A stretch of DNA of 64,000 nt from a candidate division WOR-3 bacterium (GTDB taxonomy: Bacteria; Hydrothermota; Tepidihabitantia; SM23-42; CAYGYG01), in assembly GCA_965648915.1 (NCBI GenBank), contig CBFGIV010000003.1:39323-103322 (forward strand), read 5' to 3'. The translations under genes were made by a program, and so were the position numbers. Under the pieces are notes generated by a model. The model ran no database searches. It worked only from the letters and a program-made list of their open reading frames with translations, and was not told the origin of the DNA. Of this stretch, positions 3-5,169 are shown in pieces (the stretch's first letter is position 1; each line of letters starts with the position of its first letter).

Positions 3-1298
<1,296 letters not shown>

Positions 1299-1311
1299 TT
1301 TCGTTGCTTAC

Positions 1312-2448
1312 TTACTTTCTCTCTCCTTCCCCGGCAACTTCCTCGGGAAGGAGCTGGAGAAACTGAGGCGGGATATTTTCTACCAGGTAAGTCTCATCAA
1401 CCTTATAGAAGACTACACCCTTTTTATGAGCCTCTTGGGCATCAACCTTGAAAATAACCGAACCGGCCGGTCCCCGGGAACTCATCGTTTTGGCATCATC
1501 AATATTGACGGCCAGATGAATAAAACCTCGTTTCATCGGCCTTAGACCTTCAATCAATATTTTATCTCTTACCCAACGGGGCGCATTATGATAGAGCTCT
1601 TTCGGCGGTTTAGTCTTTTTTAAATCAATCTTTACGGGTAGGGAATGGCCGTATAGAGCTCTGATTTTATTACGTTTGATTTCAAAACGTTTTTTGTCCT
1701 GGGTACTGACGATATCTTTAATCTCAGATTCTTTTACATTCAATGCCTGGGCAAGATCCTTGATGGGGATAAACCCCTTCTCATCCATTTCCAGTTTGAA
1801 CATTTCAGGATGATGCCTGAGGATAAAAGCCAATTTCCGCCCCATTCTTTCCTGGGGCGAGGTAAGGGTAAATTTGCGCAGATAGGTATAGGGGCGATCG
1901 AAGAAATCCGGAATCATAGCACGGATGGTATCGTTTATCTTCTTTTTCATTCTTTTCGATTCATCTGCCTTCCATAGATGAAGAATCGGGATGTATTCAT
2001 ACATCCTGCGACTGAGTATCTTCTGGAGGATAAAGAGTTTTACATCACGGTTTATATTCTTTAACTGAATCGGAAAGGTCTCAGGTTTATGAACATTGCC
2101 ACTATGAATCCACTGGTCGAAAGTTTTAAAGACTTCATCGGAAAGTATTTTTCGGATTCGCTCCTGACCTTTTGCTGTCTGAAAGAGGAGTGGCTGCCGC
2201 TGTCGATATTCTACCCGGAGCCAGTCATTTTCGATCATCCAGTTTATCTTATCTTTTATCTCTTTTGCGGTTTCTTTTTTAAAAGCACCATAGCCAATGA
2301 TCTGGTCAAACCCCTTCTCTTTAATGATCTTTGACCTTGAACCCTTTAATATTAAAATGAGGGCATTCTTGCCTGCCTGGTATGCAATATCACCCGCAAC
2401 CTGCAGAATTGTATCGATTTCCTGGTCAGTCGGTTGTTTTTGTACCAC
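1312..2448 (-). CDS. Fusion of an N-terminal RQC-like (RecQ C-terminal winged-helix) domain and a C-terminal RNA 2'-phosphotransferase Tpt1/KptA
   Basis: N-terminal ILKGSRSK...YGAF...INWMIENDWL resembles RQC. C-terminal ILRHHP...KKRF...IRALYGHS...GLRPMKR..IHL...VENIPP are Tpt1 motifs. Confidence 0.85.
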   Translation of the reverse strand: MVQKQPTDQEIDTILQVAGDIAYQAGKNALILILKGSRSKIIKEKGFDQIIGYGAFKKETAKEIKDKINWMIENDWLRVEYRQRQPLLFQTAKGQERIRKILSDEVFKTFDQWIHSGNVHKPETFPIQLKNINRDVKLFILQKILSRRMYEYIPILHLWKADESKRMKKKINDTIRAMIPDFFDRPYTYLRKFTLTSPQERMGRKLAFILRHHPEMFKLEMDEKGFIPIKDLAQALNVKESEIKDIVSTQDKKRFEIKRNKIRALYGHSLPVKIDLKKTKPPKELYHNAPRWVRDKILIEGLRPMKRGFIHLAVNIDDAKTMSSRGPAGSVIFKVDAQEAHKKGVVFYKVDETYLVENIPPQFLQLLPEEVAGEGERK

Positions 2449-2671
2449 TTTTTGCTCCTATCTATTTGGTCATTACCAATTATCCTAAAATTAGGCTAAT
2501 TGATCTTCTACAAAACTGATATCTGAGGCATTAATATTACTACTCCTTGATCTTCTTATCCTTTTTGCACCAGTGATAAACTGTGGTTGACAGTTTAACT
2601 GTTTCTGTAAACCAGCCAGTTCATATTGTCATATTTTTTATTTATTAATAATGCTTTTTTAGAATTAATTA

Positions 2672-2699
2672 ATTATATCTAAGGTTTAAAAAAAGTCAA
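2672..2699 (-). promoter_or_regulatory. sigma70-type promoter TTGACT-N16-TATAAT for the RQC-KptA gene
   Basis: Minus-strand hexamers with a 16-nt spacer, about 220 nt upstream of the GTG start. Confidence 0.6.
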
Positions 2700-2769
2700 C
2701 AGTGATTTATGGCCCGGACCGAATGGCTCAAGGACGGGATATATCTTGATTATTATTAATTAGCGAAAC

Positions 2770-2797
2770 TTGACATTAAATAAAATTATGATATAAT
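2770..2797 (+). promoter_or_regulatory. Promoter TTGACA-N16-TATAAT, 6 nt before the glnA ATG (probably leaderless)
   Basis: Perfect consensus hexamers at 2770-2775 and 2792-2797. Confidence 0.75.
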
Positions 2798-2803
2798 AGG
2801 GAT

Positions 2804-4144
2804 ATGGAAAAGATTCAGGAATTGATCAAGCGTGAAAAGATTGAATTCATTGATTTGAAGTATGTTGGACTCTTAGGAGATTTACGACATATTACGATCC
2901 CTGTCCAGCGTTTTAACTATATTATTAAAGATGGGGTGGGTATTGATGGTTCGAGCATTCCCGGATTTAAGGGGGTTAAGCGTTGCGATATGATTGTTCG
3001 CCCGGATCTCGACTATCATTTCATCGATCCCTTTTTTTGCGAAAGGACACTTTCATTTTTTGGTAACTGTCTTTACAGTTATGATCAGTCACCATTTGAA
3101 AAAGATCCAAGAAATCTTGTCGTAAAATTGACTGATCTTCTCAAAAAGAAAGGATTAACCGCCTATTTCCTGCCGGAACTTGAATTCTATCTATTTAATG
3201 CAATCGAATTTGATGAAGGGCCAGGTTATAGTTTTTACCGAATCGTATCTGAGGAAGCGATACCCGATGAGCGTTTTCCTGATCAGGGCTATCGTTTAAG
3301 GAAAAAAGGTGGTTACCATACTGTTCCCCCATTTGATCGAACTTATAATTTCCGTGATAAACTTACACAATTACTCCAGGCCTGCGGGATTGAGGTAAAA
3401 TACCATCATCACGAGGTAGGACCAGCATCTCAGGTTGAGATTGAACTGGCATTTAATGATATTAAGAAGATTTGTGATTTTATAATCCTCGCCAAATATC
3501 TCATCAGAAATTGCGCCCACCGGGCAGGTCTCTCAGCAACCTTTATGCCCAAACCACTCTATGGTGAACCGGGTAATGGACTACATATCCACCATTATCT
3601 TAAAAAAGATGATAAACCAATCCTCTTCAGCCTGACCGAACGCTCAAAATTGAGTCGAATCGGCGAGCATTATATCTCTGGTCTATTGGAACATGCACCT
3701 TCCCTATGTGCCTTAACCAATCCGACAACCAACTCTTATAAGAGATTAATTGCTGGTTATGAAGCGCCAACCTACACTGATTATGCAATCGGCAGTCGGG
3801 CAGCGGCGATCCGGATACCAGAATATGTGCGCAATCTCAACGAACAGCGTATCGAGTATCGAATACCAGATTGTATGGCCAATCCCTATCTTGCCCTCAG
3901 TGCAATAATCCTGGCCGGACTGGATGGAATCGAGAAGAAGATCGTTCATCCGGGAAAAAAGTCTTTACCGACCAATCTCTTAGATGCGCTTACCGAGTTT
4001 AAACATGATCATAAATTCCTTCTGACCAACAACGTCTTCACTGAAGAGATCATCGATCAGTGGATTGAGATAAAGAAATCAGAGTTTGAAACAGTTAATC
4101 AACACCCAACCGTTCAAGAATTTATCCTTTACTACGGGGTTTAA
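2804..4144 (+). CDS. glnA: Glutamine synthetase type I
   Basis: IDGSS, PELEFY, HHHEV, ATFMPKP..GEPGNGLH, NSYKRL..GYEAP, AAIRIP and RIEYR.PD..ANPYL motifs. Confidence 0.9.
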   Translation: MEKIQELIKREKIEFIDLKYVGLLGDLRHITIPVQRFNYIIKDGVGIDGSSIPGFKGVKRCDMIVRPDLDYHFIDPFFCERTLSFFGNCLYSYDQSPFEKDPRNLVVKLTDLLKKKGLTAYFLPELEFYLFNAIEFDEGPGYSFYRIVSEEAIPDERFPDQGYRLRKKGGYHTVPPFDRTYNFRDKLTQLLQACGIEVKYHHHEVGPASQVEIELAFNDIKKICDFIILAKYLIRNCAHRAGLSATFMPKPLYGEPGNGLHIHHYLKKDDKPILFSLTERSKLSRIGEHYISGLLEHAPSLCALTNPTTNSYKRLIAGYEAPTYTDYAIGSRAAAIRIPEYVRNLNEQRIEYRIPDCMANPYLALSAIILAGLDGIEKKIVHPGKKSLPTNLLDALTEFKHDHKFLLTNNVFTEEIIDQWIEIKKSEFETVNQHPTVQEFILYYGV

Positions 4145-4146
4145 TT

Positions 4147-5169
4147 ATGGAGAAGAAATTAAAATTGGGGATCATCGGTCTGGGTGCCCTGACTCAGACT
4201 ACCCATATCCCAATCTTCAAGAGGATAAATACCGTTGAGATTGTGGCAATCTGCGATATCGATGTTCGAAAACTTGATCACATTGCAACGCAACTGGGAG
4301 TTAAAAAACGATATGTCGATTTCCAGGCCCTGATTGAAGATGAAGAGGTTGAGGCGGTGGTCATTGCTACTCCAACCTATCTCCATGCCCCGATGACGAT
4401 CGCGGCATTAAATTTTGGAAAACATGTCTTCTGCGAAAAACCGATGTCAACGACGCTCGAGGAAGCAGAAGAGATGGTCGCCGCGGCATATAAAGCAAAA
4501 CGAAAATTGGCAATCGGTCTCAATAACCGTTTTCGTCCCGATGTTCAGACTTTAAAAAACTTCATTGATCACGGTGAACTGGGGGATATTTTCTATATGA
4601 AAGCAGGATGGCTGATGGGGAGAACAGAATGGGATTTTGATGAATGGCATCGCACGACGATCCGAGCCGGAGGCGGCTCGTTTTCCAGCATCGGTGTGAA
4701 CCTTCTCGATATCTGTCTCTGGTTTCTTGAGAAGAAAGAGCCGATTGCAATCTCTGGCGCCTGTCACACCCGCATTGAAAATGGTAAAATCGATGATGCC
4801 GCGGTTGCACTGATTCGCTATCACGATGATACCTTCTTAACAATCGAGGTGGGATGGTCATTGATGTTCGAAAAGGATTTTCTTTACTGCAATATGTTCG
4901 GCCAGAAAGGAGCAGCGCTCCTTAACCCCCTGGGTATTCATAAAGAGATGCATGGTCACCTGGTCAATGTCACACCTACCATCCCAACAAAGAATTACTA
5001 CCGAATATCCTTTGAACTGGAAGACAGGTTTTTTGTTGAGTCGATTTTAAGAGATCAGACACCGGTTTTTAGCGGCCAGGATGGTCTATTAATCGCCCGG
5101 GTGGTTGATGCCTTCTATCGGTCAGTAAGGCAGAAGACCGAGGTCAGGTTTGACTCGATTAAAAAATAG
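4147..5169 (+). CDS. Gfo/Idh/MocA family oxidoreductase
   Basis: GIIGLG Rossmann motif, ATPTYLH and GKHVFCEKPM. Confidence 0.9.
   Translation: MEKKLKLGIIGLGALTQTTHIPIFKRINTVEIVAICDIDVRKLDHIATQLGVKKRYVDFQALIEDEEVEAVVIATPTYLHAPMTIAALNFGKHVFCEKPMSTTLEEAEEMVAAAYKAKRKLAIGLNNRFRPDVQTLKNFIDHGELGDIFYMKAGWLMGRTEWDFDEWHRTTIRAGGGSFSSIGVNLLDICLWFLEKKEPIAISGACHTRIENGKIDDAAVALIRYHDDTFLTIEVGWSLMFEKDFLYCNMFGQKGAALLNPLGIHKEMHGHLVNVTPTIPTKNYYRISFELEDRFFVESILRDQTPVFSGQDGLLIARVVDAFYRSVRQKTEVRFDSIKK

Follow-up and report, generated by a model that had tools for sequence, protein, structure and literature searches.

A very rare, conserved RQC-minor-1/Tpt1 fusion protein from uncultured bacteria and its possible action on structured nucleic acid

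The window analysed here is a stretch of 64,000 nucleotides from a candidate division WOR-3 bacterium (assembly GCA_965648915.1, contig CBFGIV010000003.1, positions 39,323 to 103,322), and close to its start, on the minus strand, lies a gene that joins an RQC-minor-1 winged-helix module to a Tpt1/KptA domain. The open reading frame (ORF) at 1312..2448 is a single uninterrupted frame of 378 codons. Its GTG at 2448 is the earliest start codon downstream of the preceding stop, and orthologues share this start position in the alignment. The gene is convergent with gyrB, whose stop lies at 1298, and divergent from the glutamine synthetase gene glnA (2804..4144). The protein is basic overall, with a pI of 9.75 and a net charge of +22, and its parts map to the window as follows.

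1312..2448, minus strand: whole gene, RQC-minor-1/Tpt1 fusion protein of 378 amino acids (aa); GTG start at 2448, stop codon at 1312-1314
2134..2430, minus strand: RQC winged-helix domain, about aa 7-105, with a beta-hairpin wing at aa 77-90 (Pfam RQC, AF2 model and fold searches)
1891..2133, minus strand: helical tail of the RQC-minor-1 module, about aa 106-186, with helices at 92-115, 134-146, 150-160 and 165-178 (NF041107 match)
1855..1890, minus strand: inter-domain linker, about aa 187-198 (alignment; low model confidence)
1624..1854, minus strand: Tpt1 substrate (RNA/DNA-phosphate) lobe, about aa 199-275, with R211, H212, K252 and R254 (Pfam and alignment; residue roles as given in PMC6097658 and PMC12678800)
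1351..1623, minus strand: Tpt1 NAD+ lobe, about aa 276-366, with H287-N288-A289, R307-G308, H311-L312-A313 and R325 (alignment and Foldseek)

By hidden Markov model (HMM) and by fold, the N-terminal half is a genuine RQC winged helix. Pfam RQC (PF09382) matches aa 10-96 with an E-value of 2.6e-8 (34.1 bits against a cut-off of 23), and NCBIfam RQC_minor_1 (NF041107), with 132 bits (cut-off 115), aligns its model positions 3-171 of 173 to aa 7-178. Modelled alone with AF2 from a 20-row RQC-minor-1 alignment, the N-terminal half gives a winged helix, whose hairpin lies at aa 77-90, and then four to five helices (pLDDT 89.6, pTM 0.79). When this model was compared by VIA-align with 48,161 PDB representatives, the top match was 3aaf, a DNA-bound entry that shows the WRN RQC domain on duplex DNA (Z 14.7, rmsd 2.5, 101 residues aligned). 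The next were WRN helicase (Z 13.8), Deinococcus radiodurans RecQ (Z 12.8) and BLM (Z 11.2), and generic MarR and PadR winged helices scored lower (Z 9.9 or less). Foldseek places the model on 3aaf_A with a TM score of 0.74 and an rmsd of 2.0, at an E-value of just 2.8e-3.

The module therefore shares its winged helix and beta-hairpin wing with the RQC domains of the RecQ family (WRN 3aaf, RecQ 1oyw, 4tmu and 4q47, BLM 3we2; Z 11-15), and there is a weak sequence signal to RecQ 4tmu in the correct place (residues 442-497, E 0.022). Unlike RecQ helicases, the fusion protein shows no helicase core, zinc-binding domain or HRDC domain in the Pfam and NCBIfam scans, and the recQ model aligns to it only at model positions 405-500. 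It also differs from RecQ RQC domains in the helical tail that follows the winged helix. This tail (about aa 106-186) had no match to a solved structure in the N-domain fold search, where it was barely tested, and it is conserved in the 20 aligned RQC-minor-1 members. With the RQC-minor-1 family the fusion shares G26, L34, G36-S37, Y53-G54, W70, P86, G94 and other conserved residues, whereas the fused clade has Q at the position of W95, which is nearly invariant in the family.

The C-terminal half is a Tpt1 domain. Pfam PTS_2-RNA (PF01885, Tpt1/KptA) aligns positions 3-172 of its 177-position profile to aa 199-354, with 110 bits (cut-off 26) and an E-value of 1.8e-31. A whole-protein AF2 model built from a 64-row alignment has a mean pLDDT of 84.7 and a pTM of 0.62. 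Its C-terminal half best matches the Thermococcus kodakarensis KptA/DNA complex 9ldg_A in Foldseek (target-normalised TM 0.89, rmsd 1.8 Å, 35% identity), and all 21 chains found at E<=0.001 belong to the Tpt1 family, so the two-lobe fold is present. Stand-alone Tpt1/KptA proteins of known structure (T. kodakarensis, PDB entries beginning 9ld; P. horikoshii, entries beginning 8tf; C. thermocellum, 6e3a and 6ede) share this fold with the fusion at 32-36% identity, together with the Arg-His-Arg-Arg tetrad and both histidines of the NAD site. The fusion differs from them by about 190 extra N-terminal residues, by H-N-A in place of HGT and by R-G in place of R-Q.

Arg-His-Arg-Arg is described as the catalytic tetrad of Tpt1 (PMC6097658), and the NAD-site signature of the family is given as H-H-h, which includes the His of HGT and the His of HLS (PMC8120803). 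The corresponding motifs in the fusion protein are L-R211-H212, K-R254-F, PMK-R307, H287-N288-A289 and H311-L312-A313, and the substrate-lobe residues R211, K252, R254 and Y266 are retained. R211, H212, R254, R307, H287 and H311 are found in all four fused proteins recovered by our searches. The counts below set these positions against 156 other Tpt1 homologues, which are the matches of our word-index and HMMER searches minus three RQC-only proteins.

R211 equivalent: 154 of 156 other homologues
H212 equivalent: 155 of 156
R254 equivalent: 155 of 156
R307 equivalent: 156 of 156
H287 equivalent: 133 of 156
H311 equivalent: 154 of 156
Gly of HGT: N or S in the fused clade; G 149, A 6, S 1 and N 0 among the 156
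Thr of HGT: A in the fused clade; T 133 and A 1 among the 156
Gln after the fourth Arg: G in the fused clade; Q 90 and G 0 among the 156
Ser of HLS: A or G in the fused clade; S 111 and A 22 among the 156

Could such a pocket still use NAD+? The Gly of HGT is reported to touch the nicotinamide amide through main-chain atoms, and the adenosine ribose is hydrogen-bonded redundantly by His and Thr, such that yeast survives an Ala substitution at either one but not at both together (PMC10622864). T. kodakarensis Tpt1 is described as making the same NAD contacts through His98, Gly99, Thr100, Arg118 and His122 (PMC12678800), which align with H287, N288, A289, R307 and H311 of the fusion. Because the His is kept, the Gly contact is a main-chain one and His and Thr are redundant, the altered HGT residues are plausibly tolerated. 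Catalytic activity of the fused Tpt1 is then plausible from these residues but not assured, and the H-[N/S]-A and R-G pocket might reflect a changed nucleotide co-substrate. Among the 156 homologues, the HGT His is replaced by Val in 17 and the Thr by Val or Ile in 17 (V 11, I 6); to judge from these separate per-position counts, there may be a Tpt1 subfamily that makes neither adenosine-ribose contact.

A sequence-only reading of the window had described one ORF with about 190 aa of RQC-like sequence (winged helix plus helical tail) followed by a complete Tpt1 domain. The profile matches above bear this out, including the RQC identity of the N-terminus, and the structure predictions, nearest to WRN RQC for one half and to Tpt1 for the other, agree. 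That reading had also called the four catalytic residues intact, as they are throughout the fused clade, and had given HGT as HNA and HLS as HLA. Both are read correctly, but HLA is not the oddity it was taken for, since 22 of the 156 other homologues have A there. That reading took the fusion to be a single gene, which the comparisons that follow bear out, and did not recognise its architecture as described, which agrees with the literature search reported below.

The fusion architecture is real and conserved in its orthologues. A word-index search over 2084 candidates returned 14 proteins at E<=0.001, and four of these carry both Pfam domains: the window protein and P0003, P0004 and P0005, which are 69-74% identical to it over 98-100% of the query. 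The latter are three further 90%-identity clusters, standing for 4, 1 and 1 sequences. In a six-sequence alignment of fused proteins, where identity to the window protein is 68-74%, both halves are equally conserved, the tetrad is invariant, and the junction IPDFF[DE]RP[YF]TYLRKF (aa 180-198, window 1855-1911) is nearly invariant. A second genus of the same family (genome G001) has the fusion gene as a 375-aa frame with no stops. There the order is pyrG-recF-gyrB, the fusion gene on the opposite strand, glnA, a gene for a Gfo/Idh/MocA oxidoreductase, lnt and a DUF4412 gene, followed further on by three ORFs that match the window's yebC, ruvC and ruvA in a comparison of size only. From gyrB onward this is the gene order of the window, and the fusion gene thus sits between gyrB and glnA in two genera.

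The metagenome bin behind the window has low coverage (contig depths 2-5, runs X1-X4), which might prompt the suspicion that a sequencing or assembly error, or the recent loss of a stop codon, fused two adjacent genes. Nothing was found in favour of this explanation. It fails, and we give it next to no chance, because the same unbroken fusion occurs in three other 90% clusters (six other sequences) and in G001, and because the linker is near-invariant. In addition, a contig from run X1 that matches window positions 1584-2042 with 0 differences spans the domain junction, although X1 may be the source sample and not independent. The sequencing runs that contain the window stretch come from one study and are labelled hot-springs metagenome. 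Among the relatives' loci that we checked, none has RQC-minor-1 and Tpt1 as adjacent separate genes. In the full-length AF2 model the junction has a pLDDT of about 50 around aa 182-190, and below 50 at aa 182-184; a junction this conserved may be an interface or a hinge.

The fusion is also very rare, being limited to a few sequences, all of them from uncultured bacteria. HMMER over 1.84 billion cluster representatives gave 3620 matches at E<=0.001. Among the matches listed, the protein's own cluster alone aligns end to end (842.8 bits, the next match reaching 138.8 bits), and the other 149 comprise 146 that cover the Tpt1 part only and three that cover the N-terminal half only (P0051, 165 aa; P0053, 207 aa; P0058, 367 aa). 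These representatives stand for clusters at 50% identity, and a fused member behind an unfused representative would be missed. A word-index search with the N-terminal half at "longer" lengths returned the same four fused proteins only, among 366 candidates, and at "near" lengths 0 of 42 candidates scored. The ESM Atlas held no fused cluster of at least 50 members; its best scores (0.77) went to stand-alone RQC clusters and are leads only. No relatives were found in 161 pattern stretches from viral contigs or in 596 from metagenome contigs, both being weak, pattern-limited negatives.

Within the order, RQC-minor-1 occurs in 2 of 41 genomes, both from the window's family, and Tpt1 in 11. The families f2 and f3 (39 genomes) have a Tpt1 match in nine genomes, all of them f2, as eight complete frames of 185-206 aa and one partial frame at a contig end. 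The same-order Tpt1 relatives are ordinary unfused proteins of 182-194 aa, judging from ORFs extracted for six. In the sampled phylum, 3 of 151 genomes have RQC-minor-1 above the cut-off: G000, where it is fused, and two with stand-alone frames (198 and 193 aa). Of 264 stretches picked out by a pattern scan in 185,579 species genomes, 20 were confirmed as RQC-minor-1 loci; one is the G001 fusion and 19 lie in Chloroflexota and Bacillota. Twelve same-order loci from other families have neither the fusion nor a glnA-like gene within 1.5 kb past gyrB, and since gene order differs there, these loci do not tell gain of the fusion gene from loss.

Both families are known and curated, and their combination is a new domain architecture. 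Our literature search found no description of an RQC and Tpt1 architecture, although the supplementary architecture tables of surveys could list one. PMC7159879 and PMC9503650 do not mention "RQC", and the search did not find the term "RQC-minor". Where "RQC" stands beside "Tpt1" in the literature it probably means ribosome quality control, to judge from titles and the starts of abstracts, and not a study of Tpt1 domains.

What do the two modules do when they are not joined to each other? Some of the RQC-minor-1 members that we found stand alone (165-235 aa), others end in a treble-clef zinc finger or a nucleotidyltransferase-like domain, and none has Tpt1. Four unfused loci (L016, L022, L024 and L030) lack an intact host ORF and were left out of the domain scan. 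All 15 intact host ORFs match Pfam RQC, one of them below the cut-off. The zinc finger (Pfam zf_Tbcl) is C-terminal in seven of the 15 (L018, L019, L020, L025, L026, L028 and L029), which amounts to 7 of 10 Bacillota proteins against 0 of 5 from Chloroflexota; the five Chloroflexota proteins have no further domain above cut-off. P0058 (13 sequences) adds a C-terminal DUF6932 or minimal-nucleotidyltransferase-like domain with a G-S...D-x-D motif, and several sequences of its cluster are named "predicted nucleotidyltransferase" by their source. This makes P0058 a second case of RQC-minor-1 joined to a nucleotide-transferring enzyme.

In L023 (Bacillota) a gene for an AEP-TOTE PrimPol plus ResIII/DEAD SF2 helicase (1103-4195) ends 13 nucleotides before the RQC-minor-1 gene, and in L021 (Bacillota) an AEP-TOTE gene (2237-5104) lies about 1.1 kb upstream; in both loci the two genes share one orientation. 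The pairing resembles a split "helicase + RQC" arrangement. Conflict-type genes are frequent within 3 kb of unfused RQC-minor-1 genes, and the neighbours include Uma2 endonuclease-like genes (L025, L028 and L029), WYL, WCX, NB-ARC+TPR, AAA_15/AAA_21, BsobI-like and Fic. Because the module stands alone or occurs with a zinc finger, a nucleotidyltransferase-like domain or a PrimPol-helicase gene, we infer that RQC-minor-1 is a portable nucleic-acid-binding adaptor that partners with nucleic-acid enzymes.

Tpt1 has other partners as well. A fission yeast Tpt1-Yae1 fusion is known (PMC12810181). The 19 multi-domain matches that we scanned against Pfam and NCBIfam include fusions to a 2H-SAK phosphoesterase (P0045), shikimate kinase (P0112), 3-dehydroquinate synthase (P0104) and GNAT (P0039), and P0161 has a marginal HEAT-repeat match, below the Pfam cut-off, beside Tpt1. 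A nucleic-acid-binding winged helix is not among these partners. Two Tpt1 fusions of the same size as the window protein, P0029 and P0032, have N-termini of no assigned family, which were considered as possible RQC-minor-1 modules and are unrelated to it (hhalign probability below 1%). Two of the partners, shikimate kinase (P0112, 370 aa) and 3-dehydroquinate synthase (P0104, 553 aa), are shikimate-pathway enzymes.

In RecQ and WRN, the RQC beta-hairpin acts as a wedge at duplex ends and junctions. By analogy, the RQC module would anchor the fusion protein on structured nucleic acid, at a duplex end or a single-strand/duplex junction, and the Tpt1 domain tethered there would use NAD+ to attack a phosphate close by in the nucleic acid. 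This picture of an active Tpt1 that structured nucleic acid keeps in place is the interpretation toward which we lean, if only somewhat. Its likely chemistry is known from other Tpt1 enzymes, which are described as removing internal RNA 2'-phosphates in two NAD+-dependent steps and as ADP-ribosylating 5'-phosphorylated RNA or DNA in one (PMC12678800). The latter reaction has been reported in vitro on both DNA and RNA (PMC6182162), and one Tpt1 has been crystallised with DNA (PMC12678800). It is tempting to combine this 5'-phosphate chemistry on DNA with the duplex binding of RecQ and WRN RQC domains, and on these grounds DNA ends are a possible substrate, which we hold at somewhat under an even chance. 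The structural neighbours of the N-domain are DNA-binding and the protein is basic, which favours DNA ends. Pointing the same way, neither G000 (94.6% complete) nor G001 (99%) gave a match to recQ (TIGR01389) above cut-off; the only match to the RQC part of that model in the two genomes is the fusion gene itself, which is the best recQ match in G000 and among the weak ones in G001. In its most specific form, the proposal is a structure-guided DNA-end modifier whose wing docks on a duplex terminus or fork while Tpt1 caps the 5'-phosphate with ADP-ribose or removes the phosphate; phosphate removal, if any, would pass through an ADP-ribosyl intermediate. We regard this full version as unlikely.

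Several observations weigh against the interpretation of a tethered, active enzyme. The Tpt1 domain falls below the cut-off of all four NCBIfam RNA 2'-phosphotransferase equivalogs (NF002012-NF002015; the best, NF002013, scores 154.7 against 231 bits), so under the NCBI rule it belongs to the family without counting as an equivalog. In a 108-row tree the fused clade (SH-aLRT 100%) has a long stem branch of 0.92 changes per column and stands apart from the stand-alone Tpt1 of same-order relatives. For these three reasons the domain must be considered diverged, and because the deep nodes are weak (59 of 105 inner branches have support below 80), no donor lineage can be named. The unusual H-[N/S]-A and R-G pocket of the clade could mean that NAD+ use is weakened or changed. 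The relative orientation of the two domains is uncertain in the full-length model (pTM 0.62, linker pLDDT about 50). A tblastn search with eight Tpt1 queries found no Tpt1 in the 19 unfused RQC-minor-1 loci (flanks up to 6 kb) or in the phylum-sample loci, and the lack of Tpt1 near the 19 argues against a wider functional linkage of the two modules. Nucleic-acid binding by the RQC half is suggested by analogy, and the grounds for expecting it at duplexes or junctions are fold similarity and the family name; winged helices, including the substrate lobe of Tpt1 itself, can bind RNA or protein. DNA targeting and catalysis are likewise predicted from the fold and the retained residues alone. Two further points count against DNA ends in particular: no Macro domain was found in G000 or G001 at the completeness given above, and both genomes encode RtcB, on other contigs, which places RNA repair of the RtcB type in these organisms.

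Signals in the intergenic region next to the fusion gene are listed here.

2455..2459, minus strand: Shine-Dalgarno-like AGGAG, 6 nucleotides 5' of the GTG (read from the sequence)
2672..2699, minus strand: promoter-like TTGACT-16-TATAAT, an 11/12 consensus match only, about 220 nucleotides upstream of the start

The spacer between the fusion gene and glnA is 355 bp long (2449-2803) and AT-rich (GC 0.33 in the 2501-3000 bin). The minus-strand promoter-like site, 2699-2672, would imply a 5' leader of about 220 nucleotides for the fusion gene. On the plus strand, directly before glnA, lies a perfect sigma-70 consensus, TTGACA-16-TATAAT with TG, at 2770-2797. Five promoter-like sites were found against 4.5 expected in shuffles, a count that is not significant, and an Rfam scan of 1200-2900 at E<=0.1 gave no match.

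If the fused Tpt1 is active, its target could be RNA instead of DNA: RQC-minor-1 would bind structured RNA or an RNA-repair partner, and Tpt1 would strip RNA 2'-phosphates or cap RNA 5'-phosphates. RNA is the sole established physiological context of Tpt1 according to PMC6097658 and PMC10622864, the residues that grip the RNA 2'-phosphate (R211, K252, R254 and Y266) are retained, the fusion in P0045 pairs Tpt1 with an RNA-repair domain, and RtcB is encoded in both genomes. However, RtcB ligation is described as yielding no 2'-phosphate junction (PMC10622864), and the RtcB gene is on a different contig from the fusion gene. The closest structures to the N-domain are the DNA-binding RQC domains of RecQ, WRN and BLM, and the failure to find a Macro domain in either genome counts against this role too. 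We consider an RNA-directed role doubtful, but it deserves to be kept in mind.

Two other explanations are far less probable. The conflict-type neighbours of unfused RQC-minor-1 genes invite the view that the RQC module recognises invading DNA and that the ADP-ribosyltransferase (ART) domain ADP-ribosylates invader or host nucleic acid, as DarT might. The locus itself gives this no support, contrary to what the sequence-only reading had entertained. The neighbours are recF, gyrB, glnA, the Gfo/Idh/MocA oxidoreductase gene, lnt, yebC, ruvC and ruvA, housekeeping genes whose order recurs in the second genus, there is no antitoxin-like or hydrolase partner at the locus, and no Macro domain was found in G000 or G001. 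PADLOC 2.0 gives only a weak match to the RQC-like segment of DpdF (E 2e-4, 17.8 bits), and the pattern-limited viral-contig scan had no relatives. DarT-type enzymes are described as sharing the ART superfamily and NAD+ use with Tpt1, but as modifying thymidine bases of single-stranded DNA and as paired with the antitoxin DarG, whereas the fusion is a phosphate-targeting Tpt1 with no partner gene; the resemblance is one of concept only. A role as conflict or defence effector is therefore very unlikely. A regulator, in which the winged helix binds DNA and a Tpt1-derived domain senses NAD+ or ADP-ribose by analogy with NrtR, would fit the pairing of a winged helix with a nucleotide-binding domain whose NAD pocket is altered, and also the divergent glnA with its AT-rich spacer and promoter-like sites on both strands. 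Yet a pure sensor would have no need of four invariant catalytic residues, and the winged helix is of the structure-specific RQC type and belongs to no classical operator-binding family. We regard this as more improbable still.

The role of Tpt1/KptA in bacteria, where there are no 2'-phosphate splice junctions, is described as a long-standing question (PMC8120803 and PMC10622864). The conserved RQC-Tpt1 fusion predicts an enzyme that acts on structured nucleic acid, possibly on DNA ends. Because the sequences are few and their NAD pocket is atypical, what is learnt from them may not apply to the usual bacterial Tpt1. For the otherwise uncharacterised RQC-minor-1 family, this is the first pairing with an enzyme whose chemistry is known, which supports the idea of a portable targeting adaptor. 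If the protein does prove to be a DNA-end modifier, it would be the first natural evidence of an in vivo DNA substrate for a bacterial Tpt1, and it would give the 5'-phospho-ADP-ribosyl "cap" seen in vitro a physiological setting, in a lineage with no detected RecQ.

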